Source: a virus
Direction: 5' to 3' (one strand)
DNA length: 64,000 bases
IMG/VR virus record: IMGVR_UViG_3300045988_174509
This document shows positions 16,629 through 42,915 of this stretch, in pieces. Positions within the stretch are counted from its first letter, which is position 1, and each line of letters begins with the position of its first letter. The notes below the pieces were generated by a model that was given only the letters and a program-made list of their open reading frames with translations, did not search any database and was not told where the DNA came from. The translations under genes were made by a program, and so were the position numbers.

Positions 16629-16675
16629 CGGAGCGCAACACAGCTCCAACCTGTTTACATACCTCATATTACATT

Positions 16676-27434: not shown

Positions 27435-27514
27435 CAGGGAGACCTAAAGCCTCCCTGATGAAAGAAAAGGTATGAGGGCCGGGAAGAATTTCTTCCTGGC
27501 TCTCCCTTTTTACA
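27435..27514. terminator. Convergent-gene terminator region (two hairpins)
   Basis: First hairpin cagggag...ctccctg. Second hairpin ccgggaag/cttcctgg followed by ctctcccttttt. Confidence 0.45.
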
Positions 27515-27995
27515 GGAATGATCCCTCAGCAAAAAGCTGGTAGGCCCGGGCATACTTCCCGCCCCACCCAATTTCGATATGGGATTTCCCATATCGGTAG
27601 AGCTCTTCCTTCTCCATGCCAGTGAAAAGGATTTTATATTTCAGCAGGTCATCCCGAAGATAAAGCTTGACAGGCTTCCCATTGGCCGGGGAAATTCCCG
27701 GGAGGTGGAAGGAACCAATGGGGCTCCGGGCAATGAGCCTGCGCCAGAGCTGGCGGTCAATGCCGGATTGAAGAAAATCTTCCTCATGCTCCATGAAAAA
27801 AGTGTAAAGGGAAACATGGGTTCCCTCATAGTCCCCGCAATACCTGGGCTTATAGGAAAAAATTCTTGCATGAATTGATCCGCGTTTGCAGGGAATGCAC
27901 TGAGCGCGGGCTATGCGATAGACCTGGGAGCGGGAAAGCTTCAGCCGGGAGGCCGCTTCAGATACCAACACAAATTCTTCCTTCATTTCCAGCAC
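27510..27995 (-). CDS. HTH (excisionase/MerR-like N-terminus) protein
   Basis: FVLVSEAASRLKLSRSQVYRIARAQ reads as an HTH. Last gene of the leftward block. Confidence 0.45.
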   Translation of the reverse strand: MLEMKEEFVLVSEAASRLKLSRSQVYRIARAQCIPCKRGSIHARIFSYKPRYCGDYEGTHVSLYTFFMEHEEDFLQSGIDRQLWRRLIARSPIGSFHLPGISPANGKPVKLYLRDDLLKYKILFTGMEKEELYRYGKSHIEIGWGGKYARAYQLFAEGSFL

Positions 27996-28582
27996 GCGGA
28001 TTTAATATCAAAGTGGCACTTGACGGAGAGATCACATCCGCATAATGTGCAATACAAAACAGGGCGACCTTCAGCCAGACTTCCCCGTTCCTTCACCAGC
28101 TCATGCAAAAACTTGCGGGCCGAGCCCCCGGCTCCGCATGATTCGCATCCCTCCTTCTCCATGTCCGGCGGAGGTACAGGCGTGGACTTGGGGCACCGGG
28201 AGCAAATCTCATAGCGGCGGCGGGCTTCGGATATATCTACGAACCTGTGCCCTCTGCGGTACCAAAGGATCATGGTGAGAAAAAAGCCCAGCACTTTCCT
28301 GGCTGTCATCGGCTGGTGCTCCGGCCAGGAGATTCCTTCATCCCCGCAGGATTCACAGTATCCTTCCGGGAGCTGGAGACACAGGGCCTGATGGAAAGCA
28401 TCTTCGTCATAGGTCTCATCGTTGTTGCGGAGAATGGAAGCCATTTGATTCCGCAGTTCCACCAGCGTGGGTGCCGTAATCAAGGTTCCCTGGAGTCTGG
28501 GGCTCAGGGCTTCAGGGATTCGGAACTTCCACCCGCCCGGGGGCGTGACATGCAGATTGGGATGAGCTAAAATTTTAGGCAT
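27983..28582 (-). CDS. Cys-rich putative metal-binding protein (199 aa, five CxxC pairs)
   Basis: YCESCGDE, ICSRCPK, GCESCGAG, YCTLCGCD. Confidence 0.45.
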   Translation of the reverse strand: MPKILAHPNLHVTPPGGWKFRIPEALSPRLQGTLITAPTLVELRNQMASILRNNDETYDEDAFHQALCLQLPEGYCESCGDEGISWPEHQPMTARKVLGFFLTMILWYRRGHRFVDISEARRRYEICSRCPKSTPVPPPDMEKEGCESCGAGGSARKFLHELVKERGSLAEGRPVLYCTLCGCDLSVKCHFDIKSACWK

Positions 28583-28607
28583 GCCCTGATGATAGAGGCA
28601 TGCCTAA
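28575..28607 (-). terminator. Intergenic hairpin
   Basis: Stem ttaggcatgcc / ggcatgcctaa (11 bp) with a 12-nt loop; flanked by an A/T run on the - strand. Confidence 0.35.
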
Positions 28608-28637
28608 AGAAAAGCAAGACGGAAAATGGGAAGCCTT

Positions 28638-28916
28638 CTACTTCAGATAAAGATCAGCATCCTTTTCCGAGATGGGGTAAGCACAGGCATCATTCAGACC
28701 AGCACTTATATCATAGAGACAGGAAGTCAGCTCCTGGTTTTCAGCGGCAACAATGCCCAGCCTGTATTGTATAAATTCCTTTTTTTTCTGAAGAGTCTTG
28801 AACCAGTTGCGCCATGCCTCCAACTCCTTTGCTACTGCATAAGAATCAGAAAGCAAGGTATCCAAAGAAGGAGGGGTGTCCTCTAAATTTTTTATGTACT
28901 TTTCTAATGTTGACAT
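28638..28916 (-). CDS. Hypothetical protein (92 aa)
   Basis: ORF. Confidence 0.4.
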   Translation of the reverse strand: MSTLEKYIKNLEDTPPSLDTLLSDSYAVAKELEAWRNWFKTLQKKKEFIQYRLGIVAAENQELTSCLYDISAGLNDACAYPISEKDADLYLK

Positions 28917-29455
28917 GTTTTTGAACGGTAAACTTGAGCCCAGTAGAACCGGGCTATTTTGTTTTTAATATCCACCACAACAAATTCAGAAAGGGTGAAG
29001 GGAGAATTCCATCGGAAGAAAAACCGAAGACATCTTATCGTGTATTGGGCCACCTTCAAGGCAACCTGATAGGCTTCCTCCGGGGAACGGAAGTCTTGAA
29101 TGTATATGGTTCTGTAAAACGTCTGGGACTTTAAGGGAGTCCTAACAAGCACATTGAAATTATTATCACTGAATGCTACCAGACTTGACGGGTCTTTAAA
29201 CTTTTCCCGGTAGGATTCTTCCCGAACCCTCTTGGCATCATCCCCGAATACATATCTTGTCCTGCTTACAATAAGAGAAGCCTCCTCATAATTAAACTGG
29301 CTCTCCAGTTCAGGGTTATGCTTCTTTGGATTCTGAAGCCGGGGGATAACTTCCCCCGGCTCTCCTCCATCCAGAGTGCTGACATCATACCGGATGCCCC
29401 TCCGTGGCATGCGGAGGCTCCGGTATGAGGGACTAAATCTTTTCTTCTTGATCAT
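28904..29455 (-). CDS. Hypothetical protein (183 aa)
   Basis: ORF. Confidence 0.4.
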   Translation of the reverse strand: MIKKKRFSPSYRSLRMPRRGIRYDVSTLDGGEPGEVIPRLQNPKKHNPELESQFNYEEASLIVSRTRYVFGDDAKRVREESYREKFKDPSSLVAFSDNNFNVLVRTPLKSQTFYRTIYIQDFRSPEEAYQVALKVAQYTIRCLRFFFRWNSPFTLSEFVVVDIKNKIARFYWAQVYRSKTCQH

Positions 29456-30014
29456 CTATTTTAACAGCCTCAAAAAATTCATAGTCAAGCAGTTCAGATA
29501 GAGGAAGGCTCCCACATTCTAAAGGTTCGTCAAATCCATTGATATTCTTCCAGTAATAGTGGCCTGAAACTTTTAGAAGTTTAAGAAGCGAAGTAGTTCC
29601 AGTCTGGGGGTTTTTTAGTTTGACAAACTTGCCAGACATCATCAAGTCAATAGCTTTTCCTATTGTGATGGACCTCTCATATTGAATCTCTGCTTTTAAA
29701 TGGAATCCATTTTTAATAGTTTCAGGAGCCCAGTTAAGAAAGGTTTGTAATTCTGAAAAATATACTGGGTTTTCCTCTGAATCTTTCATGACGCTGACTA
29801 TGACCTGTACAAACTGGTTCTTACAGTTGCGTTTTATTTTTCTTAGCTTCCCATTAAAGAACTGATACAGAAATTGATCCCCAGGCTTATGAGTAAACAG
29901 GATTTCCAGACCCTCCTTAAATGAAACAGGGTTGGACAAGTAAACTCCAAAATTTTTACATTGAAAATATTCTTTAAGAGAATTCATAAAAATTATAGTT
30001 GTTAAATTTCTCAC
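29433..30014 (-). CDS. Hypothetical protein (193 aa)
   Basis: ORF. Confidence 0.4.
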   Translation of the reverse strand: MRNLTTIIFMNSLKEYFQCKNFGVYLSNPVSFKEGLEILFTHKPGDQFLYQFFNGKLRKIKRNCKNQFVQVIVSVMKDSEENPVYFSELQTFLNWAPETIKNGFHLKAEIQYERSITIGKAIDLMMSGKFVKLKNPQTGTTSLLKLLKVSGHYYWKNINGFDEPLECGSLPLSELLDYEFFEAVKIDDQEEKI

Positions 30015-30426
30015 GAGTTGCCATTATATCATAGGAGTCAGTTTCTATAATGAGTCCTTTCAAGGCATCACAAATTCTAATATCTTTGAACCTATGAGAA
30101 TAGATTGCCAGCCTCTTCCCTGTCACTAGCTTTTCAACAGCCGCGTCAAAGGCAAGAGCCTTGGCCAATGGAAGGACAGTATCCAAAACAAATCCTTCTT
30201 CCTTTAGTTGAGGATCAAACTTGGCCGGGGCTACCTGAGAATAGAGAACCGAACCATTAGGGAGTCTTGCACACTTTCTTTCCATGAGGGCCCCTTCATC
30301 GTAATCAAAAATGTAGCGGACCGCATAGGAATCTTTTTCCGCGACATGTCGATAAAGGCAATGCACGCCGTTCGGGTTAGTCAGGGCGCAAAGACCCTCT
30401 TTAAATGTATAATGTTTAGTGTCCAT
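29974..30426 (-). CDS. Hypothetical protein (150 aa)
   Basis: ORF. Confidence 0.4.
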   Translation of the reverse strand: MDTKHYTFKEGLCALTNPNGVHCLYRHVAEKDSYAVRYIFDYDEGALMERKCARLPNGSVLYSQVAPAKFDPQLKEEGFVLDTVLPLAKALAFDAAVEKLVTGKRLAIYSHRFKDIRICDALKGLIIETDSYDIMATREKFNNYNFYEFS

Positions 30427-30766
30427 CAGGGTTACGGGTTAGGTTGTCAAAGTATTTTATTCCATCATCAGAAATTATGTAGGCTTTAGGAAAGGTATCA
30501 GGAACTAAAAGGACAAGACCAATGCGCCTCAATGAGCTCAGATACTTTCCAATGCTTGCCCGGTCAACCAGATTGGCCGCGGCAATTTCTTTTACAGTCA
30601 CAGCGGCAGGCTGGAGAAGGATAAAGCAAAGCAGTTTCACTTCCTTGTGCCGGAGTATGCAGTTACGGTCGTAATGGGCAAAGTAATTAAACAGCAGGCG
30701 AGCCTTCGGTTTCACCCGCTCCATTAGGTCCTTCTTTTTTCTCTTCCAGTTTAGCATATGTTTCAA
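30416..30766 (-). CDS. Winged-helix DNA-binding protein
   Basis: AVTVKEIAAANLVDRASIGKYLSSLRRIGLV reads as HTH plus wing. The true start may be the internal Met at 30724. Confidence 0.4.
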   Translation of the reverse strand: MKHMLNWKRKKKDLMERVKPKARLLFNYFAHYDRNCILRHKEVKLLCFILLQPAAVTVKEIAAANLVDRASIGKYLSSLRRIGLVLLVPDTFPKAYIISDDGIKYFDNLTRNPDGH

Positions 30767-31244
30767 TAATTTTTTGTTTAGATATGACCCCCTTCATCAG
30801 CAGGAGAGGAATGGCGTAATTTGTGCATTCAGTAATGTGCTTCTTCTTCTCTTCCGGATTCCCGGTCAGCTTGTATAGCTGACATCCGAGGAGCAGAACG
30901 ATTGCGTTGACGAGGATATTAGGGGGACAGATTAAATCAGTTTTCCCCCAGTCCTCTTCCAGCACCTTGACAGATTGCTCTACCAAATCACACCCGGCAT
31001 TCAGGCAGGCATTCAGGAGTCCGTTCACTTCCTCCTCATGGAAGACTTCCCCCTCCCCAAAACTGTAGAGAGCCATGGCATTTTTCTTAATGCCCTCTAT
31101 GTCCTCGGGCCCCTGGATAGGAGGAAGGGAGTTGACCAGGGTGCTGAGGAGCAGAGCCTGATCATTCACTTTCTTTTTTCTGTCCGCTTCCATTTTTTCA
31201 CAGGTGTGATCCAACTTCTTCTGGAGTTTTGTTTTCTTTTTCAT
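30687..31244 (-). CDS. Hypothetical protein (185 aa)
   Basis: ORF. Confidence 0.4.
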   Translation of the reverse strand: MKKKTKLQKKLDHTCEKMEADRKKKVNDQALLLSTLVNSLPPIQGPEDIEGIKKNAMALYSFGEGEVFHEEEVNGLLNACLNAGCDLVEQSVKVLEEDWGKTDLICPPNILVNAIVLLLGCQLYKLTGNPEEKKKHITECTNYAIPLLLMKGVISKQKIIETYAKLEEKKEGPNGAGETEGSPAV

Positions 31245-31885
31245 TTAATAGGTCTTTGAAAATGAGCGCATAGACGTTCCGCCAGGAACATGGGGATTCT
31301 AAAAAGAACCTCCACCAAACCTTTGGTAAATTCCTTAACCCTTTCTTCCTTTCCTTCCTGGTCATTGCCCTCCGTATCAAACAAATTTTCGACATGGCAG
31401 GTATTAACAAAACCAACATGGATCAAATAAATTGAAAGAAGAAGAGTCATCTTTATCACTTTGGGAGGTATTGAACCCTCCCCTCTACTCATGGTCTGAT
31501 GAAGTTCAATAAGAGACATAAGCTGGGAAATTTTAGGAAGCCTGAGAATAAACTCAAGCAAATCTATGCTCGCCATGAAAACTTTTTCCCTCATGTAATC
31601 AGGTCCGAGAACCTTGACTTCAAGATCGTATTCCTCAAGGATCGAATTCAAAGTAGAACACCAGACTTCCTCTATCTTGATCTGGTTTTCTTTGACCCTT
31701 AGATCAAAGTCCTTCTCAGTGCAATTCTCTTTTGACTCCCTTAAAGATTTTATATCTTTGAAAAACTTTCCGAATCCGGAATTAAAATCTTCCATGCTGA
31801 AAGCCAGACCTTTACGGAAGACCAGATTAAGCAGATCATCATTGATCTCGCCCCATGTAATAGCAGTTTTTTCTGTTGTATTCAT
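31241..31885 (-). CDS. Hypothetical protein (214 aa)
   Basis: ORF. A 31-aa mini-ORF (31886-31981, -) sits between it and the upstream conserved element. Confidence 0.4.
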   Translation of the reverse strand: MNTTEKTAITWGEINDDLLNLVFRKGLAFSMEDFNSGFGKFFKDIKSLRESKENCTEKDFDLRVKENQIKIEEVWCSTLNSILEEYDLEVKVLGPDYMREKVFMASIDLLEFILRLPKISQLMSLIELHQTMSRGEGSIPPKVIKMTLLLSIYLIHVGFVNTCHVENLFDTEGNDQEGKEERVKEFTKGLVEVLFRIPMFLAERLCAHFQRPIK

Positions 31886-31997
31886 ATTGTACTAATGGTT
31901 AATAACGTCAAGGAATCCGGGAATCTGGAATTCACGGAACCAGGAGGTCAAAAACTCCTTGGCTTGCATTAAGGTAAGTAACTTCATGATGATTTAT

Positions 31998-32010
31998 GTT
32001 GAGGTTCTAA
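31998..32010 (-). promoter_or_regulatory. Conserved element, variant TTAGAACCTCAAC (- strand)
   Basis: Lies 10 nt upstream of a 31-aa mini-ORF ATG. Confidence 0.4.
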
Positions 32011-32024
32011 CAAGTTCTAGTGGT

Positions 32025-32597
32025 TTATCGCAAGAAGTAGATAGTACATGGGGAACCCGGAATCAGGGAATCAGGGCGCGTCCAGACCTTCAAAGGCTTT
32101 AATACCGAATAGGCGGACCGGACATCGTAAAGCATTTGAGAAAGATACAGGAGCACCTTTTCAAAACTGCTCACTTGAGCGGCCCCGATTACAACATTGC
32201 GGTTCTGGCTTGAGACTTCAATGAAATAACATCCCCGCTCTTCCATCTTGTACACGTCCGCTTTGATCACTTCCTTGAGAGGGAGAGCCAGCTCATTCTT
32301 CTGGGGCTTCCCCGCCCATCTAAGGCCAAGGATATGGGAGGCATGCGGACCAAGAACCTTATCAACCTCCTTCTTTATAAGCTTTGACACTGCATCCATC
32401 ACGATCGTAAGGTCTTCATCCGTGTCAGATGGGGCCGGAGTAATGAATTGATCTATGGCAAGATAATTGGTAGGGGCCTGAAAGGTGCCGGAGAAATGAA
32501 TCCTCGCTTCATATCCCGGCAGGTCTTTGGTGATCTTCTTCCATGCCCCCAAAGCTGCCCGAAGGAATTTCCAATCGGCATCATTAAATTTAATCAT
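32025..32597 (-). CDS. Hypothetical protein (190 aa)
   Basis: ORF preceded (- strand) by the TTAGAATCTCAAC element. Confidence 0.45.
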   Translation of the reverse strand: MIKFNDADWKFLRAALGAWKKITKDLPGYEARIHFSGTFQAPTNYLAIDQFITPAPSDTDEDLTIVMDAVSKLIKKEVDKVLGPHASHILGLRWAGKPQKNELALPLKEVIKADVYKMEERGCYFIEVSSQNRNVVIGAAQVSSFEKVLLYLSQMLYDVRSAYSVLKPLKVWTRPDSLIPGSPCTIYFLR

Positions 32598-32988
32598 GAT
32601 TTTTAATGGCTGTTTTACGTTGAGATTCTAAAGACAGCATTTCTTTTACAAGTTGCCAGCAAGAAAACAGGTATTGAACTACCCTGTCCATCATCTTGAC
32701 TGCTGATAAAAGAAGATGGCTTACAGATACATAAACGAAGAACACGGCAAGCACATTTAAAAGCAGGGCCATTAGCTTGTCTTCGTTGATCAGGTGATGA
32801 ATGCTAAACCCAAAAACACTTCCTTCAATGGCGGCTAGAATCCAGCACCATGATATCCATAATTCAAGAGTCTTGTGAAGGAAATCTCTGAGTTTCCCTG
32901 CCTTCAGGTACAGGCCAAGACAAGCGTTCGCCCGTTCGGGCAATGGAAATCTCAGAAGATACTTGCTCAGAAGTTTATGCGGTTTCAT
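32590..32988 (-). CDS. Membrane protein (132 aa, 3 predicted TM helices)
   Basis: Hydrophobic helices. ATG directly abuts the TTAGAATCTCAAC element. Confidence 0.45.
   Translation of the reverse strand: MKPHKLLSKYLLRFPLPERANACLGLYLKAGKLRDFLHKTLELWISWCWILAAIEGSVFGFSIHHLINEDKLMALLLNVLAVFFVYVSVSHLLLSAVKMMDRVVQYLFSCWQLVKEMLSLESQRKTAIKNHD
32619..32631 (-). promoter_or_regulatory. Conserved element TTAGAATCTCAAC (- strand)
   Basis: Lies 22 nt upstream of the ATG of gene 32025-32597. Confidence 0.45.
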
Positions 32989-33250
32989 GTTGAGATTCTA
33001 AAGGGGTTAAGCACACGTGGATATGCCGGGCGGTTCCCGGGGCTTTGAGCTCCAGCTCAAAGCCCCCTGCCAGTAGCTTGCGGTTTGCTTTCCGCAAGTC
33101 GGCAAGAAGGAACCTGCTGTTTTCTACCAGGATTTTTCTTCTCCCATCAGAAAAAATTTCAATGGCCCCCATGGTGTGATGCGCCTGAAAGAATTCGTTT
33201 AGGATTTCTTTCACTTCCTGTTCTGTCAGTTTATTTGAATGGTAAAGCAT
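32975..33250 (-). CDS. Hypothetical protein (91 aa)
   Basis: ORF. Confidence 0.4.
   Translation of the reverse strand: MLYHSNKLTEQEVKEILNEFFQAHHTMGAIEIFSDGRRKILVENSRFLLADLRKANRKLLAGGFELELKAPGTARHIHVCLTPLESQHETA
32989..33001 (-). promoter_or_regulatory. Conserved element TTAGAATCTCAAC (- strand)
   Basis: Directly abuts the ATG of gene 32590-32988. Confidence 0.45.
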
Positions 33251-33584
33251 GACTCTTTGATCATCTGTAGGGTTGGAATAATTTACAGGGGCTCATAGTG
33301 GTCCCTAAAATAGAACCGCCTGCCCTGAAAGAATCATTCAAAAGATTATCCATGATCTGCTGGCTCTTGATAAAATTGATATGACTCCTTATCAACTTTT
33401 GGGACTCCATTGAAAGGATTCTTGAGCGTAGAATGTGGAAGTTCCCGGCTTAAATGGGTTTTTGGTATTCATGATTATGATTTCTTTCTATTTAGTATTG
33501 GTTAGCGCGGCGATCTTGCCGCATGTCTTCACTGTAGTAAACTGATCTGTTTTTACAAGATATTTTTCAAAAAAATTTTCTTAC

Positions 33585-33599
33585 GTTGAGCTTCTATAA
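33585..33599 (-). promoter_or_regulatory. Conserved element, variant TTATAGAAGCTCAAC (- strand)
   Basis: Lies downstream of gene 33611-34597. Confidence 0.35.
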
Positions 33600-33610
33600 G
33601 TTATGCAATT

Positions 33611-34597
33611 CTATTTCATGTAGAATTTGAATTTTGTCTCACCCTTTTCAGAATCTTCCGTCACTCGGATGCGCTTCAGAAGGAACGGGAAAACTTCGTT
33701 GCACTTGGCTTCCACCTTGTCGAGAATTTCCGTTGGAACTTCAGGCATTTCAGGACTGGGAGATTTCCAGACAAGATAGCCGTAATATTGTGTGAAGGGA
33801 ACAAAGGAAGCACTTGCTCCAACTTCCTTTCCGAGCTCCTCGAATATTGCATTCACGTCCTGACTAAGCACAGAATAAAATTCCTGCATTTTTTCAAGGG
33901 CGTCATCCAAGCAAAGATTCTCTACTTTATGGAACACGTACTGGGAAAGGTTCCCCTTCTCATTTACCACAAGATTTTTATTCAGGGATCGCCACACACA
34001 CACCTTATATTTTCCCGGTGCACTGTCTTCCATGTGCTGAACCGTAAGGAAGAAGGGAGCGGAAGGAATCCTGATTGCCAAGTCACTTTCCAGAATCCGG
34101 GAAGCATGAAGCCTTTCAATGGGAATCCGGGGAACAGAAGTCAGGGGACCAAGGGAGAGAACAATAGAAAGGTTCCGTTTATAATTGTTAAACTTCTCTC
34201 TTGGAGAATTTTCTTGGTAGAACTCTTCTATTTTTTCAATCTCTCCTTCCCGGGAGAAGAACGCAAGCACTCTTTCATGGTCATTTGTTATTTGAGCATG
34301 CGCCTTGCGTGTCTCGAGAGTTGGATTGAAACAATGCGATTCAACCCATACCGAATATTCTCTTGGCTTTTTTAGCCGGAGAATGAGACGGATAGCTCTT
34401 TCATTAGGTTCAAACAAGCCATAGTAGCGAAGTGACAAGGTTTTCATTTCTCCTTCCCGCGGATTTTTCCGCTTAAAGGTGACGCGGAACAACTTTCTAG
34501 GATTGGCTTCAGGGATTCCATAAGGCTTTACGCCGTTCTTCTCCCATTTAACGCTGAAAGAAATATCCATGCCTTCGAGTAATGATTCAGTTTCCAT
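33611..34597 (-). CDS. Hypothetical protein (328 aa)
   Basis: ORF. Confidence 0.45.
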   Translation of the reverse strand: METESLLEGMDISFSVKWEKNGVKPYGIPEANPRKLFRVTFKRKNPREGEMKTLSLRYYGLFEPNERAIRLILRLKKPREYSVWVESHCFNPTLETRKAHAQITNDHERVLAFFSREGEIEKIEEFYQENSPREKFNNYKRNLSIVLSLGPLTSVPRIPIERLHASRILESDLAIRIPSAPFFLTVQHMEDSAPGKYKVCVWRSLNKNLVVNEKGNLSQYVFHKVENLCLDDALEKMQEFYSVLSQDVNAIFEELGKEVGASASFVPFTQYYGYLVWKSPSPEMPEVPTEILDKVEAKCNEVFPFLLKRIRVTEDSEKGETKFKFYMK

Positions 34598-34637
34598 ATT
34601 ATTTTTAGGTTCTATATATTAGAGGTTCTTTTATTTA

Positions 34638-35087
34638 TTAGCGTTCTTCTCTTTCAGTTTTGATCTTTATGCTACCTTCGGAAGGAATTTTAGCGATTCT
34701 AAACGCAAAATAATAGCCTTTATCCGCATCATGGTAAGAAAAGTAATCCTCCAAGCTACTGGTGAAGACCTTTTCCATATTCTCCGTATGTAGCAGGGGG
34801 AGAATGCCCTCTCCTATATAAAACTGAAGAGATTGAACGCCTGCCATTAAATCCGTTTCAGCTATCACCTGATCTTCAATCACTTTCCCGGTTCGTTCTT
34901 CAACAATTTTCCTTAAATTGCATTCAAGAAGATAGCCAAACCATTCCAAAGGATCAGTAAAATATTCATCCGTAGCCGTTTCATTGGCAAGCTTCAAGCA
35001 ATAATCTCTTACATGCTCCGATTTGCTTTGCCTTGCCATGTCAATCAGCTTCCTAATGGCGGCAAGCCTGTATTCATTTATGTTCAT
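34638..35087 (-). CDS. Hypothetical protein (149 aa)
   Basis: ORF. The 5' region carries the conserved element plus a perfect 24-bp palindrome. Confidence 0.45.
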   Translation of the reverse strand: MNINEYRLAAIRKLIDMARQSKSEHVRDYCLKLANETATDEYFTDPLEWFGYLLECNLRKIVEERTGKVIEDQVIAETDLMAGVQSLQFYIGEGILPLLHTENMEKVFTSSLEDYFSYHDADKGYYFAFRIAKIPSEGSIKIKTEREER

Positions 35088-35123
35088 TATATTTAGTCCC
35101 TTTCTACTTGTTTTTTGATTCCG

Positions 35124-35147
35124 GCGGGCAGGAAATTTCCTGCCCGC
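35124..35147. promoter_or_regulatory. Perfect 24-bp palindrome GCGGGCAGGAAATTTCCTGCCCGC
   Basis: Self-complementary sequence in the 5' region of gene 34638-35087. Confidence 0.6.
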
Positions 35148-35162
35148 ATAGAGATTCTAAAA
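35148..35162 (-). promoter_or_regulatory. Conserved element, variant TTTTAGAATCTCTAT (- strand)
   Basis: Lies upstream of the palindrome and gene 34638-35087. Confidence 0.4.
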
Positions 35163-35201
35163 GGAAATGCGTGAGAAAATGCACTGAACTTAAAAACTCC
35201 T

Positions 35202-35426
35202 TCACAAAAGGCGGGCGTTATGCTCTACATACCATTCGGCAGGATAAAGGTCCACACCTCCCCTGACTCCCGGATTCTGTGACTCCCGGAATCCCTGAAG
35301 CAGGGATACAAACATTTCTGGATCACTCATTTCGTGAGTCAATACGGCGGGCGCGGCTTTTTCTTCTATACTAGTGTTCATTTTATGTCTTCTTTCTACT
35401 TGTTTTTTGTTTTTTGATCCGCCCAT
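35202..35426 (-). CDS. Hypothetical small protein (74 aa)
   Basis: ORF. Confidence 0.3.
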   Translation of the reverse strand: MGGSKNKKQVERRHKMNTSIEEKAAPAVLTHEMSDPEMFVSLLQGFRESQNPGVRGGVDLYPAEWYVEHNARLL

Positions 35427-35505
35427 GGGGGCGGGGGCATGAATTTAGATTAGCTTAGTGATTGTATTGTACAATAAAAATAGTAAAGATTTTTGTCATA
35501 CACGT

Positions 35506-35967
35506 TTACAAGTCATCGAACATGGCGGAAAGGCAGGCGTAATTCCTTGAGGGATAAAGGCATTCAAACCCTTGCAAGGGGTAGGTGATTTTGATTCCTT
35601 TGCAATATATGTTTGCACTGCACGACGGAATGTTCAGCATGCGCAACTCCGAAAGAACGGAATTTTTAGCTTGCCTTGCGGCCATTTGCAAGGATGAATC
35701 TGAAAAACTGAAAGGGAACTCCCTGATAAATGACGTTTTGTATCCGGAGTTCTCCAATTCAATGATGATCACCAGCCGGAATTGCGCGCCTTTGGCGTCA
35801 TGATACTCTAGCGGAAGAAACTCCCGGCAATTTTGTGTCATGTTCCACACGTCCAATGCTCCTCTATTCATAAGACTTTGAATCACGGAGGAAGGGGAAC
35901 AGGAAGCAGGGAAAGACTTGGAACGGTGCTTTTCCTTTGTAATGTATGCGTATTCAATAAGTTCCAT
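35506..35967 (-). CDS. Hypothetical protein (153 aa from the ATG at 35967)
   Basis: The track start at 35988 is a TTG lying inside the conserved element. The ATG at 35967 directly follows the element. Confidence 0.45.
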   Translation of the reverse strand: MELIEYAYITKEKHRSKSFPASCSPSSVIQSLMNRGALDVWNMTQNCREFLPLEYHDAKGAQFRLVIIIELENSGYKTSFIREFPFSFSDSSLQMAARQAKNSVLSELRMLNIPSCSANIYCKGIKITYPLQGFECLYPSRNYACLSAMFDDL

Positions 35968-35969
35968 AT

Positions 35970-35984
35970 ATTGAGATTCTATAA
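35970..35984 (-). promoter_or_regulatory. Conserved element, variant TTATAGAATCTCAAT (- strand)
   Basis: Directly abuts the ATG at 35967. Confidence 0.45.
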
Positions 35985-37280
35985 TCAAGATTGTTTCTTT
36001 GTAGACCGCCCCCTTGTATCAAACGCCGGGATATTTAATTTTCTCCTTGCTTTTCCGATAACTTGTATTGATTTGCCTGTTTTATTAGCGACTTCTTTAT
36101 CAGTCATTGTGCCCAGCAGGGATTTAATGTATTCGTCCCCTTCTATTGTTTCTTGCAAGCTTTTTTCCTCACGTAATGCCGGAACATTCAATTTCTGTCT
36201 AATTCTTCTTACTGCCTCGTCATCAATATTAAATTTTTCGGCTATTACTCTATCATAAACTTTCCCAAGCATAGATAAGAGTTTTTTACGTTGGTCCGGT
36301 GAAAATCTTTCTAAAATGCTTTTACTGAAAGGCTTAATTTTGTTCTGTTCTCTAAATTTTTTAATTACATATACGCTGTACCCTGTTTTTTTTGCAATTT
36401 TTAAATCTGATACTCTTCCCAATAAATTAAGAATTATATCCTTGTCCGCATCCTTAATGGGAGCTGGAGCAATTTTTAATTTTCTACGGTTCCGCGCTAC
36501 AACATTAAGCGATATTCCAAGCCTTTCAGCAATTTCGCTATCAGGAATTTTCCCAAGCATGGATAGCATTTCTTCGCGTTTCTCTTCGGGGATTTTAGTA
36601 TCAGATAATGATAGAATGCCCATCTTTTTTCTAATAAGCGCAATTCCTGCCTTGGAATAACCGAATTTTTTAGCAATTTCATCATCCGGGGTCTTTCCAA
36701 GCATGTTAATTAACTCTTCGGGATACTCTTTTTTCTTGTGTGGTTTATTTGGGTCTCGTGGCTGACGGGGTTTACGCGGCCCCCTATATGACTTAATCCC
36801 TAATTTCTTTCTAAGGTAGGCTACTCTGGAATTTGAGTATCCAAACTTCTTGGCACACTCCGAGTCAGGAATTTTTCCGAGCACTGCAATAAGCTCTTCA
36901 TCGTGTTGGATGCGGATTGCTTCAGGGCTGCAATACTTTTTGATACCTAATTTATAGCGTTCAGTCTGGACCGTGACGCGCGCTATTCCGAGTAGCTCGG
37001 CGATTTCCAGGTCAGGTTTTTTGCCCAACATGGACCGCATTTCTTCACGCTGTTCGTGAGAAAGAATGCGGTGAAACCTCTTTTCTCGGTATTTTTCATG
37101 CAATAACTCCATGAGCAATTGCATGTATTCAGGCGTGGGATGTGGTTTTTTAGTATTTAGCCACTTCCAAACAGCATCTTCCGTCACCCGCATCATCTGC
37201 GCGGCCCTTTTTACAGCTTGGGTAGGACTTGGGAGATTGTTGGCCGTTTGAAGCCAGTCGATAAATTCTTGTGCGGTCAT
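35985..37280 (-). CDS. Protein with ~85-aa N-terminal domain plus seven tandem ~46-aa sigma-region-4-like HTH repeats
   Basis: Seven copies of the pattern LG(K/R)xPDxEIAxKxGxSxxxVxxxRxKLxI: ELLGIARVTVQTERYKLGI, KKFGYSNSRVAYLRKKLGI, KKFGYSKAGIALIRKKMGI, ERLGISLNVVARNRRKLKI, KKTGYSVYVIKKFREQNKI, EKFNIDDEAVRRIRQKLNV, NKTGKSIQVIGKARRKLNI. Confidence 0.6.
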   Translation of the reverse strand: MTAQEFIDWLQTANNLPSPTQAVKRAAQMMRVTEDAVWKWLNTKKPHPTPEYMQLLMELLHEKYREKRFHRILSHEQREEMRSMLGKKPDLEIAELLGIARVTVQTERYKLGIKKYCSPEAIRIQHDEELIAVLGKIPDSECAKKFGYSNSRVAYLRKKLGIKSYRGPRKPRQPRDPNKPHKKKEYPEELINMLGKTPDDEIAKKFGYSKAGIALIRKKMGILSLSDTKIPEEKREEMLSMLGKIPDSEIAERLGISLNVVARNRRKLKIAPAPIKDADKDIILNLLGRVSDLKIAKKTGYSVYVIKKFREQNKIKPFSKSILERFSPDQRKKLLSMLGKVYDRVIAEKFNIDDEAVRRIRQKLNVPALREEKSLQETIEGDEYIKSLLGTMTDKEVANKTGKSIQVIGKARRKLNIPAFDTRGRSTKKQS

Positions 37281-37321
37281 GGTGAGAAAGGAGGGGCGGC
37301 AATGCCGCCCCTGGGGGTTAT

Positions 37322-37648
37322 TTAGTGAGCTTCAACGCGGGAAGCGTCCTGCGTCCAGTTGAGGTTTTCTCCTTCAATTTCTTCGCCCGTCATTTGTTCA
37401 AAGACCATGTAGATTTCAACCTTGTTCCCTTCTGCATCATAGCCGGGAGCAGACCATTCTTCCATATAACTGCCGTCTTCGTATTTGTCCGCATAGGAGC
37501 CAGGGAAAACCCTGTTGGTGTATTCCATCTGGCGCGCTGCATAGTAGGTCTTGCCTTCGAACTTGTAGCTGCCAAATTCACGTTCAAGAGCGGTCAGGTT
37601 GATTTCTTCTCCGTCTTCCGTGGTGATGATTTTGTTATCGTTCATCAT
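37322..37648 (-). CDS. Small highly acidic, Tyr-rich protein (108 aa, net charge about -15); candidate DNA-mimic/anti-restriction early protein
   Basis: 24 D/E against 9 K/R. It is the first gene downstream of the strong leftward promoter and has an AAAGGAA Shine-Dalgarno sequence. Confidence 0.45.
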   Translation of the reverse strand: MMNDNKIITTEDGEEINLTALEREFGSYKFEGKTYYAARQMEYTNRVFPGSYADKYEDGSYMEEWSAPGYDAEGNKVEIYMVFEQMTGEEIEGENLNWTQDASRVEAH

Positions 37649-37782
37649 TTTTGTAATTCCTTTCTTTCAGGTTTTATTCTTGGCAGGGCGTTGCGCCCTT
37701 GCATGATTTTTTGATAGCATTACGGAGGGTTCCGTTCAACCGATTTTTTGCAGGGAGCCGGCAAGTGATTTAAAATGAAAGG

Positions 37783-37810
37783 ATTATAATTGTGTCATAC
37801 AAGGTGTAAA
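37783..37810 (-). promoter_or_regulatory. Strong sigma70-type leftward promoter
   Basis: On the - strand: -35 TTTACA, a 16-nt spacer, then a perfect -10 TATAAT. It lies ~125 nt upstream of the acidic-protein gene. Confidence 0.55.
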
Positions 37811-38570
37811 AAAGTGTGAAAAGGTGCTTGCAATGTAAAAATCCGGCATTTGCGGCACAAAAATCCAGCGTCAAAATCAGGCATGGGGGAGTATCGTAAA
37901 AAGTACAATAAGCCATGAAGCCGGGAAACCCGGGTTCCGGGTTCCGGGTTTGGAGGATTAGGCAATAATTGAGGCAGGTGCAAAAGCAGGAATGATTCAT
38001 AAAATTTTATGGCTGGTGTCCCATATTTGAGCCGGATTCCATAAAATTTTATGGAACTTTGGACAGTTTCAGGGTGTCAGGTATAAAATTTTGTAAAAGC
38101 AGGGAGAGGCGGGTGCAGGGCGTCAGGGTAACTTAGAATCAGGGAGTCAGGGGATCAGTTTGGAGGATTAGGCAAGAATTTGAGAAGAAAGGAAGGCCCT
38201 TCTTTTCTTCTCATATCATCAACGTATCATGATATGTTGATATGTTATGATTCACAAGCAAGCCCGCAATTTATACAGGCGTATAAATATGCACCCCTGA
38301 ACCCCTGATTCCGCCCTTCCCTGCACCCCGCTTCACACGTCAAAAAATACAATAACCCCCCTATTTCCGGCTATGGAAAAATTCAAACGTAACATAATGG
38401 ATTGAATCTTAACGTCTAGCACGTTCATACTTCGCATAATATGTGTAATGCAAAATCGGAAGCACGATTCAGGCATAACAAGAAAATACATAAGAAGTTA
38501 TGAAGGAAATTACCCTGAAATTGGAAGCCGATTTCCGCCATACGGGAGGTTTACAGGGCCAGGGGTTCAA

Positions 38571-38613
38571 GGTTAGAGTGGCTCAAAGGTTCAGGGTTCG
38601 AGCAACTCTAACC
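38571..38613. other. Imperfect hairpin
   Basis: Stems ggttagagtggctc / gagcaactctaacc with one mismatch and a 15-nt loop. Confidence 0.4.
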
Positions 38614-38625
38614 CGGAATCAGGAA

Positions 38626-39100
38626 ACATACCACCACGGTTGAGGGGGCTCACGGGTTCAGCGAGTGGAGGTATAAATCTTTGGGTCGGGAATGCCCTGG
38701 AGGAACCATTTTTGGAGAAAGGGGGATGTATGGACCTAGAAGGCGGGTTTACCCCCAGTTGGGTACTCTGTACCGGACCTACCCCAAAACACAGTTTTAG
38801 GCGACCACCCTACATGAAAAAACCGTATTCTGGCATGAGCATGGTTCCCAGGCATGCGTAAAGGGCGGATACCACCACGGGGGAAGGGGTGGAACTTGGG
38901 AACCGGAAAGGGCGGGATCAGGGGTTCAGGGGGTCGGAAAAAATCGGTGAAAACGGAAAAATGGGAGGTATGGACCTAGAAGGCGGGTTTACCCTCTTTC
39001 CGCTACAGAGTACTGGACCGACCCCAAAACGCAGTTTTAGGCGACCACCCTACATGAAAAAACCGTATTCTGGCATGAGCATGGTTCCCAGGCATCCTCG
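38626..39100. repeat. Two tandem ~240-bp degenerate direct repeats
   Basis: Both copies start ATACCACCACGG. They share ggtatggacctagaaggcgggtttaccc and a 75-bp core (ccccaaaac[a/g]cagttttaggcgaccaccctacatgaaaaaaccgtattctggcatgagcatggttcccaggcat) identical except one base. Confidence 0.8.
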
Positions 39101-39298
39101 CGTGCGCATGCGCGTAGGCATGGGCATGGGCTGGCAGGGGTCGGCATACATGTCGGAAGAAAGGTCGGAAAAAGGGTCGGCATGAGCGGGGCTCGCCTAC
39201 GCATACGCGTACGTACGCGCACATGGCCCGCGTCACCCGCGCATGTGTGGGCATGTGCAGGCGTATGCGCTCGCCCGCCTCAGCGCGCCCAGGAAACT
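39100..39298. repeat. GC-rich GCATG-laden imperfect inverted-repeat block containing 4x GTCGG at exact 12-bp phasing
   Basis: cgcgtgcgcatgcgcgtaggcatgggcatgg at 39100-39130 is inverted relative to cgcctacgcatacgcgtacgtacgcgcacatgg at 39193-39225. GTCGG occurs at 39140, 39152, 39164 and 39176. Confidence 0.6.
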
Positions 39299-39400
39299 TT
39301 TATAATTCAATATTATAATAAAACCCATATATATATATATAGTATTTTTTAACTTTTTTATTTTTAGGGTTCTTGTATTGATTTTTAACGAGTTATGAAG
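39299..39400. other. AT-rich block with a (TA)7-8 run; candidate DNA-unwinding element
   Basis: Contains ttttataattcaatattataataaaacccatatatatatatatagtattttttaactttttta. Confidence 0.45.
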
Positions 39401-39495
39401 ACGGATTTTGTGAAGTGAAAAGTCAGAGCCCCTTTTCACATGCCTTGACAAAAATGGAAATATGTATGAATTTGGTCTTTTTTATACTTTAGAAA

Positions 39496-39510
39496 TTAGA
39501 ATGATTCTAA
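39496..39510. promoter_or_regulatory. 15-bp palindrome TTAGAATgATTCTAA (inverted pair of the TTAGAAT half-site)
   Basis: Arms ttagaat/attctaa are perfectly complementary. Confidence 0.5.
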
Positions 39511-39532
39511 AAACTTTTACATACTTTTTTTA

Positions 39533-39735
39533 TCGACATTTTTACGACATTTTTACGACGTTTTTTTGACCCCATTTTTGACCCCATTTTTGACCCCATT
39601 TTTGACCCCATTTTTGACCCCATTTTTGACCCCATTTTTGACCCCATTTTTGACCCCATTTTTGACCCCCTGAATCCGTGATTCCGCCCTCCCGTTCCAC
39701 CTCCATTTTTGACCCCCTGAATCCGTGATTCCGGA
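39533..39735. repeat. Iteron array: 3 x cgacattttta (11 bp), 9 x gaccccattttt (12 bp) and 2 x ccctgaatccgtgattccg (25-bp-class direct repeat)
   Basis: Direct reading. gacccc occurs at 39568, 39580, 39592, 39604, 39616, 39628, 39640, 39652 and 39664, with a tenth copy at 39711. Confidence 0.85.
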
Positions 39736-39779
39736 TACCTCCGGACCCCCGTCACCGGAAACCCCTTTTTATTTTTCTC

Positions 39780-39807
39780 TTGACAGGATTTCCGTCCGGA
39801 TTATCCT
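39780..39807 (+). promoter_or_regulatory. sigma70-type promoter for the primase gene
   Basis: -35 TTGACA at 39780-39785, a 16-nt spacer, then -10 TATCCT. The ~15-nt leader has no Shine-Dalgarno sequence. Confidence 0.45.
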
Positions 39808-39828
39808 GGCTCCACATTAATACATCCC

Positions 39829-42800
39829 ATGACACCCCTATATATCGACGACATTCATATCTCTATTGCCGCCCCATCCGCCCCGCAGTGGCTCACTGCC
39901 ATGGACGTAAACAAAAGGTTCTACCATGTCGGTCATTGCAATAATGCCTTTAATGCGGGGCTGAAGGCTATTGCCCTTGGCTGGATGAAATTTGAGGACG
40001 CAGAAGGCTTTCCGCTCACTCCCGATTTGCGCAGATGCGGCTATATGTGCGACGCCTATGCAATGGACAAGGGCGTGAAACTTCCCGCCCTCCTGCCTGA
40101 TGCCTATATAGATAGTATTTCCAAATGGCGGGAAATCTCCCCCGAGGCGGGCATCCCCAAATCCGTGCTCCCAGCCTTCGTGCCGTCAGTCTCCTTCAAT
40201 TACAAGTTCATTCGCAAATGGCAGAAGGACAACCAGGATGACCGGAAGAAGTACCTGAGCGCGAAAGCCTTGGCCGGACGCGATCCCCGGGCGTGGAGCC
40301 ATACGGGCCTGTTCTGCATTGACATTGACGCCGGGCACGACGGAAACCCTGAAGCCCCTGACGCCCTGTACGCCCAGGCCCATGCCAATGGCGCCTTCTC
40401 CCTGATGCCCGGATTCCTTTTTTCCTTTGCATCCCCGAATCAGGGAATCAAGCTGATGTTTAAAGTGGACCCGGTTCTGCTCGCGCTTCTCAATACCCCG
40501 GAAGGATGCGGAGATGCGGACCTGGAATCCCCGGAAGTATCGGGGGAAGCCCTCGCCCGGGTGCAGTCTTTGCGCGAGAAGAACCACGCCATATGCTTTT
40601 ACGCTATCGCCGCGATGGTTTCCCGCCATACCGGGCTTGCCGTGGATTTATCCTGCTCCGATCCCTGCCGCCTCCAGTTCATGTTCCGGGCCCATGCCTC
40701 CCGGTATGAGCTCAATCCCTGTCTCCTTGATTCCGAAGTCCCGGATTCCCTGCTTCCTGGGTTCAGCATCGACGGAGCCGATGCATGGAGGGAGTATGAG
40801 GAGACAGCCGCCCGCCGCGGAGCCGGAGGCTCCGCTGTGCAACCCCGGAATTTTGAGCCCGGAAAAGACAATAAGCCCGACAGTATTTTGAGGTTTGCCG
40901 ACTGGCTCAAATCCAGGGGGTGGCTGAAGGAAGCCCAGCACGTTTTGGACATGACTCCCGGACCCCGGGGCTATTATTCGTTCTGCCTCCAGTGCCGGGA
41001 TGTAAGCAGTACGCCTTCCGGACCTCGTGACTTGCTCCTGTGGCTTGACAGGGATTCCCCCGGGAGGTTCGGCTTCAAGTGCCTGCATGAATCCTGCCAG
41101 AGCCGGGCCAAGGTCAAGTACCCGTTCTGGTATCTGGCAAAGCTCTACCATGAGGAGCAGGAGGCGTTGAAGATTGCCCATGAGGCATCCAATTCCTATC
41201 AGGTGCCTGAGCCCATCCGCAAGTTCATCCGCACCAGAAGCGAGCTCTCCGAGCACAAGATCATCATTGGGAACATCGGGATGGTCCAGTCCTCCTTCAA
41301 GACTCCCGATGCCCTGCCGAACCTGTTCGAGTGGGATGAGAAGACCGGAGCCCTGCTTACTACGGCCCTGAATGTGTCGGGCTATGTGCGCCACTGCATG
41401 GGATTGTATCCCGTATATAACAAGGACCTGTGCTGTAACGAGTTCATTTCTCCGGATACGGGCATGTGCTTCCCGTTTGACGCGGTGCGCAAGGCCGTCC
41501 TCGGCTACTTCATGACCCGGTGCAACAAGGACGTGTCCAAGCAGTTTCTTTTTACCTCCCTGCATGAGGCCCAGGGCCTTTCCTATTCGCCGCTGTTTGC
41601 GCTGGGGTACTGGGAGGAGTGGGACGGAGTTCCCCGGGTGGACCAGTATATCGACCTGCTGGAGTGGGACCCGGCCCACCAGCCGCCTAAAATCTTAAAG
41701 GAGGATGGCACGCCCATGTCGGGGCAGGAGTGGAAGCGGCATGCCCTGCGCTCCTGGCTGGTGAATTGCTGGGAGCGCACCGTCTGCTCGGTGATCGGCT
41801 CGGACAAGGTGCCGACCTTCGGTGGCCGCCCCTCGCACCTGATGCCGGAAAACAAGATGATCATCCTCTGCTCGGAGACCCAGGGGGTGGGCAAGACCCA
41901 GTGGGTGAAGGGGCTGGTGGGGAGCAAGGCCCAGGAGTCGCTGGTCATTGCCGATAAGCTGGAGCAGAGCAAGGACCATGACAAGATTTCGGCCATCAAG
42001 CCGATCTTTTTCCTTGACGAGATGGAGAAGACTACGAAGAACGAGGAGATGAACTCGCATCTCAAGATGGTGCTGACCCGGAGCCACATTGACATTCGTG
42101 ATCCCTATGAGAAGGACATCATGCACAGGAAGGTGGTGACTTCCTTCATCGGGGCGACCAACGAGCCAAAGCCTTTGAGTGATGCCGATGGAAGCCGCAG
42201 GCTTGTGTTGCTTTATGTGAGGAGGCCCGCCGATAAGATGGGCAGTGTAGGCAATTGCCCCGAGCATGTGAAGGAGATGCAGTCGCTCAATGTCGCCCAG
42301 TTCTGGGCCGAGATCAAGTACCTGTCCGAAACGGCCAAGCCCGGGGAGTATGCGCTGACGCCCCAGGAGACCAATCTTGTGCATTACAACCAGACCACGG
42401 CTTTGGAGAACGGGGAGTTCAACCACCTCGTATCCTACCTCCGCTTCATTCCCTCAAACTACCCGGCGGCGGACGGGAAACAGCTCCGCAAGATGATCAA
42501 CGGGGCGTACAACGATCCGGCCAATATCATCAATTCGGTCCGCAGGTATCTCGGGGAGCGGGAGATCAAGGTCTCCTGGCGCGGGAGCAAGCAGTTCCGC
42601 CAGCATCTTCTGGCCCAGGTGCCCGAGGGGTGCTCTCCCACCTACTATACAGGCAAGCGCGGGTCTCCCCGTGTCGCCCTGTACCCGGTTATGCTTGAAT
42701 CCGAGTTCGAGCTTCTGGCCTCCGATACAGCCAGGAAATCCTGGGCTCGGGACAACCCGGAGGAGGCGGCGAAGTATTACAAGCGGATCAAGTTCGGCCT

Positions 42801-42915
42801 GGGAGATGGTTCCCTGGTTGACGTGGACCCGGCGCAGGCCGAGAAGCTGGACATCTACAAGCCCTACTATGACCAGTATATGGAGGACAGTCTGGAAAAT
42901 GAGGACGAGGAGTAA
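39829..42915 (+). CDS. Primase-polymerase (AEP/PrimPol-like) fused to a D5-like P-loop helicase (1,028 aa)
   Basis: LFCIDIDAGHDG matches the AEP hhhDhD motif. Walker A is SETQGVGKTQW and Walker B is IFFLDEMEK. Confidence 0.6.
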   Translation: MTPLYIDDIHISIAAPSAPQWLTAMDVNKRFYHVGHCNNAFNAGLKAIALGWMKFEDAEGFPLTPDLRRCGYMCDAYAMDKGVKLPALLPDAYIDSISKWREISPEAGIPKSVLPAFVPSVSFNYKFIRKWQKDNQDDRKKYLSAKALAGRDPRAWSHTGLFCIDIDAGHDGNPEAPDALYAQAHANGAFSLMPGFLFSFASPNQGIKLMFKVDPVLLALLNTPEGCGDADLESPEVSGEALARVQSLREKNHAICFYAIAAMVSRHTGLAVDLSCSDPCRLQFMFRAHASRYELNPCLLDSEVPDSLLPGFSIDGADAWREYEETAARRGAGGSAVQPRNFEPGKDNKPDSILRFADWLKSRGWLKEAQHVLDMTPGPRGYYSFCLQCRDVSSTPSGPRDLLLWLDRDSPGRFGFKCLHESCQSRAKVKYPFWYLAKLYHEEQEALKIAHEASNSYQVPEPIRKFIRTRSELSEHKIIIGNIGMVQSSFKTPDALPNLFEWDEKTGALLTTALNVSGYVRHCMGLYPVYNKDLCCNEFISPDTGMCFPFDAVRKAVLGYFMTRCNKDVSKQFLFTSLHEAQGLSYSPLFALGYWEEWDGVPRVDQYIDLLEWDPAHQPPKILKEDGTPMSGQEWKRHALRSWLVNCWERTVCSVIGSDKVPTFGGRPSHLMPENKMIILCSETQGVGKTQWVKGLVGSKAQESLVIADKLEQSKDHDKISAIKPIFFLDEMEKTTKNEEMNSHLKMVLTRSHIDIRDPYEKDIMHRKVVTSFIGATNEPKPLSDADGSRRLVLLYVRRPADKMGSVGNCPEHVKEMQSLNVAQFWAEIKYLSETAKPGEYALTPQETNLVHYNQTTALENGEFNHLVSYLRFIPSNYPAADGKQLRKMINGAYNDPANIINSVRRYLGEREIKVSWRGSKQFRQHLLAQVPEGCSPTYYTGKRGSPRVALYPVMLESEFELLASDTARKSWARDNPEEAAKYYKRIKFGLGDGSLVDVDPAQAEKLDIYKPYYDQYMEDSLENEDEE

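Follow-up and report, generated by a model that had tools for sequence, protein, structure and literature searches.

The replication origins of the Staphylococcus aureus pathogenicity islands (SaPIs), which are served by the self-loading helicases Rep and Pri-Rep, combine short iterons with an AT-rich region and have the initiator gene as their neighbour (PMC9371898). A repeat array of related layout is present in an uncultivated gut phage of ~68 kb, represented here by a 64,000-nt window from the IMG/VR virus record IMGVR_UViG_3300045988_174509, in which tandem 12-bp units stand directly upstream of a gene for a VapE/D5-type helicase and putative primase. The phage locus is like the origins of SaPIs and of other phage-inducible chromosomal islands (PICIs) in its multicopy short motifs (6-12 in SaPIs), its AT-rich region, its adjacent helicase-initiator gene (primase-fused in SaPI5) and the lineage specificity of its iterons (PMC9371898). 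The SaPI iterons, however, are only 5-6 nt long and lie downstream of rep, on both sides of the AT-rich region and in opposite orientations (PMC9371898), whereas the phage has perfect 12-bp tandems that precede the gene, all of one orientation and on a single side of its AT-rich region, and no winged-helix domain was identified in its protein. Judged by its sequence layout, the array belongs to the known class of repeat arrays that stand beside phage initiator genes.

Four other systems bear comparison. The origin of lambda and the Shiga toxin (Stx) phages, with the O protein, 19-bp iterons and an AT-rich region (PMC7466680), is a possible phage parallel, with direct repeats that are bound by the initiator and vary in number. 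Bending at A/T tracts, which forms part of the lambda origin, also recalls the T-tracts of the phage array; the lambda iterons are nevertheless imperfect, internally palindromic and spaced, lie inside the O gene, and include no perfect 12-bp tandem. In P4, the ori and crr sites used with the alpha primase-helicase have octamers as direct repeats and an AT-rich region, again with no perfect 12-bp tandem array. The parC site of plasmid R1 has ten iterons of 11 bp placed around the par promoter, to which ParR binds in what is expected to be a helical protein-DNA filament, and it shares with the phage locus about ten head-to-tail repeats of 11-12 bp beside a promoter. The phage, unlike R1, shows no sign of plasmid-like maintenance, and no ParR/ParM or ParA/ParB genes were recognised in Pfam and PHROG scans of 30 open reading frames (ORFs) of the window, a weak negative given how many of these ORFs are matchless. 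At the origins of phi29, protein p6 makes contacts with a 12-bp periodicity and wraps the DNA in a right-handed path that has been proposed to help open it, and bendable tracts that recur every 12 bp close to a replication start (a putative one in this phage) are common to both; the phi29 origins, however, are at the genome ends and are protein-primed, and p6 recognises bendability rather than a repeated sequence.

The core of the array is formed by nine exact tandem copies of TTTTTGACCCC on the plus strand in a 12-bp register (39563-39669; unit TTTTTGACCCC(A)), with a tenth copy at 39706, and a search of the whole window found no other exact copy. Tandem Repeats Finder (TRF) reports the core as 8.9 copies of period 12 with 100% matches (score 214). 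With up to one mismatch allowed there are 13 matches in the window against 2.8 +/- 1.8 in shuffled sequence, and none of 100 shuffles reaches 13; the 12-bp repeats are real and chance is excluded. The palindrome, 11-mers, 12-mers and duplicated element named in the original prediction were all found where it had placed them, with some changes of detail. Its nine units starting at 39568+12n are regular, but in that register only eight copies of GACCCCATTTTT are complete and the ninth begins the next element. Of the three 11-bp units said to precede them (39534-39566, plus strand, from sequence and TRF), two are exact copies of CGACATTTTTA starting at 39534 and 39545, but the third, CGACGTTTTTT at 39556, is degenerate and carries two mismatches. 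The element described as two copies of 25 bp is indeed duplicated, but the exact duplication is of 31 bp, CCATTTTTGACCCCCTGAATCCGTGATTCCG, at 39656-39686 and 39703-39733 on the plus strand; the copies are 47 bp apart and overlap the right end of the array, each holds two TGAWTCC motifs, and the duplication carries the tenth TTTTTGACCCC. The locus thus has the direct-repeat cluster of a short motif that is typical of iterons, with 9+1 copies of TTTTTGACCCC and 2+1 of CGACATTTTTA on a single strand. One strand carries 13 T-tracts between 39525 and 39663, each 11-14 bp from the next. Pyrimidines make up 74% of the plus strand of the array, which has no self-complementarity and is unstructured on folding. 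A weak array of opposite orientation, with ~2.4-3 copies of a GGTCGGAAAAAG-like unit of period 12, lies to the left of the AT-rich block at 39135-39185 on the minus strand (39152-39180 by TRF, score 44); its membership in the repeat system is doubtful, because it is poorly conserved and is one unit shorter in the related contig 175860.

The close lineages all have an array whose period is 12 bp and whose units contain a T5 tract, and the unit is homogeneous but specific to the lineage: GACCCCATTTTT in the window, contig 169882 and L021; GACCCCTTTTTT in contig 175860 (helicase 93% identical), in at least nine copies with a single CGACATTTTT; and GCCCCTGTTTTT in L019 (helicase 88% identical). 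The 11-bp unit is present once in contig 175860 and as a single TTTTCGACAT in L022, and the 31-mer element occurs as one copy before GGATACC in contig 169882 and as at least the final copy in L021. L021, a 98%-identical relative, has two copies of GGATACCTCCGGCCCCCCGTCTCC at positions 28-75, a 24-bp tandem duplication between array and promoter that is absent from the window. Because the copies of the 31-mer vary and L021 has its own duplication, the stretch can be described as a hot spot of tandem duplication with concerted turnover.

Three more distant relatives (L022, L024 and L025; helicase 62-64% identical) have no tandem array, and the order of parts is kept in them: a (TA)n-centred AT-rich block, a conserved box CAATTATCAATnrGTTAyG, T-tract+GAC motifs, a palindrome, and the promoter. 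The palindromes are situated ~85-105 bp upstream of the -35 element (TTAGAATcATTCTAA in L022, TTCAAAAcacTTTTGAA in L024 and TCGAGAgTCTCGA in L025). Scattered T-tract+GAC motifs in L022 read TTTTTGACCTCC, TTTTTTTGACCCCGAC and TTTTCGACATCC, and the pattern TTTT-N0-2-GAC occurs on the same strand at three sites in L022 and three in L024, each against 0.08 expected. The period and the T-tract are therefore what is retained among the close lineages, with the motifs only scattered further out. Because both unit types of the window have imperfect, spaced counterparts in the distant relatives, the comparison identifies the perfect array as a recent amplification of older, imperfect, spaced motifs.

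The array is at the right edge of an ORF-poor stretch of ~2.2 kb (37650-39828) between a leftward gene block (27510-37648, minus strand) and a rightward one, and it lies upstream of the first rightward gene, with genes for PolA, a second helicase, an exonuclease, a resolvase and terminase following. On its left side is an AT-rich block (39290-39420), a candidate DNA-unwinding element that includes (TA)7 at 39327-39341 and the most AT-rich 100 bp of the window (39298-39397, 84% AT); an adjacent AT-rich region, another iteron-type feature, is found in all lineages examined. Further left, a G+C-rich block with alternating purine/pyrimidine (Pu/Py) tracts occupies 39099-39275 (CGCGTGCGCATGCGCGTA at 39099-39116; TACGCATACGCGTACGTACGCGCACATG at 39198-39225) and is nearly identical in contig 175860; at 28, 18 and 16 nt, the longest three alternating Pu/Py runs of the whole window are grouped at 39099-39341. 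Tracts of this kind are prone to structural change driven by supercoiling and can adopt Z-DNA or cruciform conformations. On the right side of the array, a T-rich stretch and a sigma-70-like promoter (39766-39807, plus strand) precede the helicase gene, with a -35 element TTGACA at 39780-39785 (45 bp past 39735, as originally stated), a 16-nt spacer and a -10 element TATCCT at 39802-39807, matching the consensus at 10 of 12 positions in a consensus scan. The pattern TTGAC(A/T)-N16-18-TAT(C/T/G)(C/T/G)T recurs in eight loci with a variable spacer sequence, including lineages whose surroundings are unalignable, and both hexamers are kept in L001, L018, L019, L021, L022, L024 and L025, which makes the predicted primase promoter credible.

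The helicase gene itself (39829-42915, plus strand) starts 96 bp past the last repeat, giving the adjacency, though adjacency only, that is usual for an iteron array and its initiator gene. Its 1028-aa product is classed by Pfam (PF05272, 4e-18, and PF19263) and by PHROG (DNA helicase/primase families) as a VapE/D5-type (superfamily 3, SF3) helicase and putative primase, and is a candidate initiator; CIDID..GH, a Cys/His cluster, Walker A GVGKT and Walker B DEME are its invariant motifs. The N-terminal 620 aa and the C-terminal 169 aa have no Pfam match, and the label of primase is an annotation-level guess because those N-terminal residues match no family. A search of PDB sequences gave no match. 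The window has no megablast match among 50,697 phage records, and none of the deposited phage genomes has a close relative of the primase; a helicase profile scan of genome contigs recovered no further relatives, and a conserved 23-mer matched only contig 175860. A second copy of ~190 bp of the helicase gene (window 41582-41780), 74-77% identical, is found in a downstream gene of L024 (6111-6285) and of L025 (4138-4336).

The number of 12-mers differs between assemblies. L041 (68,154 bp), which was found by look-up of the exact helicase protein, has five tandem units against the nine of the window and matches it at 100% identity across 2782 bp on the left of the array and 6246 bp on its right, so that the copy-number variation proposed earlier as a check is seen between assemblies with identical flanks, and the ordered counts of three, nine and two first reported depend on the assembly. 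Four contigs with identical downstream sequence end inside the array, leaving stubs of 61, 49, 49 and 16 nt, and the relatives 169882, 175860 (at both ends), L018, L019 and L021 also break in or next to it; altogether 9 of 11 assemblies end no more than ~250 bp upstream of the helicase gene, and the window and L041 read through. Such a shared stopping place would also be seen if the contigs ended at a physical genome end or packaging site of the virion DNA, but this is very improbable: the ends are scattered through the array rather than fixed, two assemblies pass through it, contig 175860 has both of its ends here, which is what cutting a circular assembly graph at a repeat would give, and the terminase gene is 11 kb distant. 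Because the break points differ from contig to contig and the 49-nt stubs (55 nt with the next GACCCC) fit an assembler k of 55, the contig ends are attributed to repeat-induced assembly breaks and not to a terminus. The array thus accounts for the breaking of these phage assemblies at one place; its reported copy number is to be flagged as unreliable, and the nine copies should be taken as a minimum or as one allele.

With the anatomy, position, conserved architecture, unit turnover and copy-number instability of the array established, we tentatively infer that it is the recognition part of a replication origin, a set of candidate origin-type binding sites recently amplified by slippage; we consider this quite possible, though short of probable. 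The repeats, each a T-tract with a GAC(C/A) core, would be protein-binding sites of one orientation in a replication-control region, and the initiator that binds them would be either the adjacent VapE/D5-type helicase and putative primase or another phage protein. The spacing of the sites and of their T5 tracts, 12 bp instead of 10.5 bp, might set bound protein and bent DNA on a helical path, and a wrap of this kind could help to open the structure-prone AT-rich DNA that lies 150-250 bp to the left, where the helicase would be loaded. The perfect tandem form would be a recent and unstable slippage product of older, imperfect, spaced repeats. Several features favour an origin: the array adjoins the most AT-rich 100 bp and the three longest Pu/Py runs; it is at the divergence point of the gene blocks, directly upstream of the first replication gene; the order of AT-rich block, palindrome, T-tract+GAC repeats, promoter and helicase is kept at 62-64% helicase identity where the DNA is otherwise unalignable; and the 12-bp period is kept in three close lineages despite their differing units.

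A number of results weigh against an origin. GC skew follows transcription and gene orientation and gives no origin signal. Perfect, spacer-less units that differ between close lineages and are non-tandem in distant ones form the pattern of a young minisatellite. The repeats flank the AT-rich block on one side only, and the counterpart that a SaPI-type arrangement would have on the other side, in the opposite orientation, amounts to the weak and non-conserved set of 2.4 copies at 39152-39180. Pfam identifies no DNA-binding domain in the helicase, whose AlphaFold2 model is unusable (mean pLDDT, the predicted local distance difference test score, 36.8), and the protein has no hypervariable or specificity domain whose divergence tracks the change of repeat unit. 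L025 has no T-tract+GAC site on the array strand. Each unit, finally, holds a -35-like TTGACC and equals a repeat that flanks bacterial TIRYT genes. The iteron-origin architecture proposed in the original prediction therefore survives as a one-orientation repeat cluster beside AT-rich DNA and upstream of a helicase and putative primase gene, but the repeats have the look of a recent minisatellite and not of classical imperfect iterons, and the origin interpretation is plausible but only partly supported. If the array is an origin, it provides a handle on replication in a gut phage family that has no cultured member.

The palindrome, TTAGAATgATTCTAA (39496-39510), is a perfect 7-1-7 palindrome and a candidate site for a dimeric protein, each arm of which also reads as a -10-like TAGAAT; it is identical in contig 175860, and its central base is flipped in L022. 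Perfect 7-1-7 palindromes number 11 in the window against 3.3 +/- 1.7 after shuffling, and a palindrome alone is not rare. The minus strand of the leftward block has seven copies of the palindrome half-site TTAGAAT where 1.1 would be expected, a number reached in 0 of 2000 shuffles, and these sites are 7-99 nt upstream of gene starts, with five of the seven reading TTAGAATC. The reuse of a leftward-block half-site by the palindrome, one of the earlier claims, is borne out by this enrichment at the level of the sequence, and the TTAGAAT element may be either a -10-like part of a promoter or the half-site of a regulator. The leftward block also has seven copies of TTTAGAATC (29516-35160, minus strand), mostly 50-70 nt upstream of leftward gene starts, which is probably a promoter or regulatory element of that block.

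These motifs raise the question of whether the array serves transcription and not replication, as a set of RNA polymerase or regulator sites or a phased bend upstream of the promoter, with the palindrome as operator, controlling early expression at a place where no replication starts. Each unit combines a T-run with TTGACC in the layout of the conserved promoter TTTTTCTCTTGACA, the 31-mer resembles the L022 promoter region TTGACTTCGACCCCTGAACCCCTG, the palindrome arms are the -10-like TTAGAAT(C) that recurs upstream of leftward genes, and the region separates divergent transcription units. We regard this as somewhat unlikely, however, as the repeated TTGACC is not followed by a -10 element, a 12-bp phasing is off the helical repeat and would not be expected to yield a planar bend, and the array ends 45-110 bp from the -35 element, which is far for an UP-type effect. 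Almost no gene of the window has a Shine-Dalgarno sequence, the regions upstream of the starts being A/T-rich, which hints at a host not reliant on Shine-Dalgarno-led initiation; such a host may not use sigma-70 promoters of the E. coli kind. A neutral minisatellite, in which slippage amplified a short motif in permissive non-coding DNA to no purpose and with the main consequence of breaking assemblies, would account well for units that are perfectly identical, for five versus nine copies between identical flanks, for the separately homogenised unit of each close lineage, for the other tandem duplications nearby (the 47-bp-spaced 31-mer and the 24-bp duplication of L021), and for the lack of a tandem array in distant relatives. 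It would account less well for an array that none of the close lineages sampled lacks and whose period of 12 and T5 tract never vary, for seed motifs that predate the array and are enriched in distant relatives, and for a fixed position between the AT-rich block and the promoter, and we consider a purely neutral repeat unlikely.

The remaining alternative comes from bacterial elements with the same repeat. TIRYT proteins are Y1 HUH transposases fused to a helix-turn-helix similar to domain IV of DnaA. The terminal-repeat motif published for TIRtrons is GGGGWSAS (Di Nocera 2013, PMC3733652), and for TnpA-REP subclass 2.1 the DNA target of the DnaA-like domain was not recognised (Quentin 2018, PMC6006769). 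When one genome per bacterial species was scanned for GACCCCNTTTTT x3, 12 matches were obtained from many phyla, namely from Chlamydiales, Gamma- and Deltaproteobacteria, Campylobacterota, Nitrospirae, Clostridia and Verrucomicrobiota. Four of the 12 triplets are 25-350 bp from homologous proteins of ~320 aa (one of 261 aa) with an IS200-like Y1 transposase domain (Y1_Tnp), three of which also match the DnaA C-terminal helix-turn-helix Bac_DnaA_C, and at all four loci repeats of the heptamer TGACCCC are on both sides of the gene. Several of the others are hairpins with GGGGTCAG/CTGACCCC at the ends of their arms and exactly three units after them, in agreement with the published GGGGWSAS motif (PMC3733652; PMC6006769). 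Across loci L029-L040, three tandem TGACCCCnTTTT units occur beside TIRYT genes or as a hairpin plus triplet (for instance L029:5569-7150, L035:6500-7547, L037:5712-7125 and L034:7462-7590), and arrays of 6-8 copies are present in L033 and L036. We assign the triplet-flanked bacterial genes, from these matches, to the TIRYT/TIRtron class, corresponding to TnpA-REP subclass 2.1, and the tandem TGACCCCnTTTT triplet may be the DNA target of the TIRYT DnaA-like domain. As a concrete candidate binding site, this side result may matter more than the origin.

The phage array shares with these elements the identical tandem 12-mer TGACCCCnTTTT, the 12-bp period and a TGACCCC core that fits GGGGWSAS (PMC3733652; PMC6006769), and the arrays of L031, L032, L035 and L038 are 100% identical to the window unit over 35-39 nt. 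The array could accordingly be a relic or mimic of transposon ends, either derived from a TIRYT/TIRtron or bound by its protein, but this too is improbable. Bacterial elements usually have three copies with a CC prefix and an inverted partner or a hairpin, and a Y1-transposase/DnaA_C gene is often close by, in contrast to the 5-9+ copies of the phage, which has neither partner nor gene: no TIRYT/DnaA_C-like ORF was found among the six-frame ORFs of the window and nine related loci, the only GGGGTCA of the window is at 18974 and not near the array, and the array strand does not fold. Phage and bacterial loci have nothing in common beyond the array, and no such array was found in the other IMG/VR contigs searched. 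A T-tract+GACC(C/T)C is already present at this site in phages whose helicase is 62% identical, which makes a recent insertion unlikely, and the unit of L019 (GCCCCTG) lacks the TGACCCC core. A functional tie to TIRYT, in which a host Y1-HUH nuclease is recruited to the phage 12-mers, for example to nick and prime replication or with the phage as its target, or in which a transposon terminal repeat has been domesticated, is in our estimate slightly more doubtful still. Were it true, the tandem 12-mer would in either case be the long-sought target of the TIRYT DnaA-like domain, and a phage carrying the TIRYT-flanking unit suggests a phage-TIRYT link that can be tested. Akkermansia was considered as host from the match to a metagenome-assembled genome (L038), and was set aside as a weak lead, with only the 36-nt array in common and a contig of 64% G+C.

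Other features of the ORF-poor region and of the repeats were noted alongside. Between 38426 and 38700, a 27-nt sequence CATACTTCGCATAATATGTGTAATGC that is invariant in four sequences from three lineages precedes a conserved stretch of ~250 nt, in whose long hairpin (38564-38620) a compensatory change, from G-C to A-U, is seen. The RNA fold z is -2.7 and Rfam has no match; the region is a candidate for a phage non-coding RNA that has a promoter of its own. An Rfam search of 37400-40000 (E<=1) gave only two chance-level matches, and a known RNA was rejected. A coding repeat was likewise rejected for the array, where the minus-strand ORF 39507-39755, with a GTG start and the repeat (GSKM)n, has no true homologue and no exact record. 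Two 138-bp direct repeats (38718-38855 and 38958-39095; 89% identical, 240 bp apart) are also present in contig 175860 and fold no better than shuffled sequences. Copies related to the 31-mer, CCCCTGAAyCC..TGATyCCGCCCT, are found at 38294 (plus strand) and 38898-38932 (minus strand). TGAnTCC occurs 77 times in the window against 30 expected and GAWTC 208 times against 120, the expectations being from mononucleotide shuffles that leave codon bias uncontrolled; TGAnTCC is often arranged in tandems of 8-bp period in both orientations (18073, 32059, 38136-38158, 38914-38932 and 39671-39733) and reaches a very high density in non-coding DNA of L022 and L024.

At the edge of the ORF-poor region, the genes for a 431-aa multi-helix-turn-helix protein and a 108-aa protein (35985-37648) are 98% identical on at least ten other viral contigs (L004-L013), with homology ending sharply at 37645, and both are absent from contigs 175860 and 169882; the segment looks like a mobile gene cassette. 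The 431-aa protein (35985-37280) was rejected as a necessary binder of the array, since in contig 175860, which does have the array, that position is taken by an unrelated gene of 204 aa. Elsewhere in the window, a 3407-aa ORF (16622-26845) with no Pfam or PHROG match has a strong A>T skew on its coding strand, and the ORF at 9-713, at the window edge, contains an 18-bp tandem repeat of ~26 copies (window 1-466) encoding hexapeptides such as VYGNAK and VSGDAE that are typical of a beta-helix.

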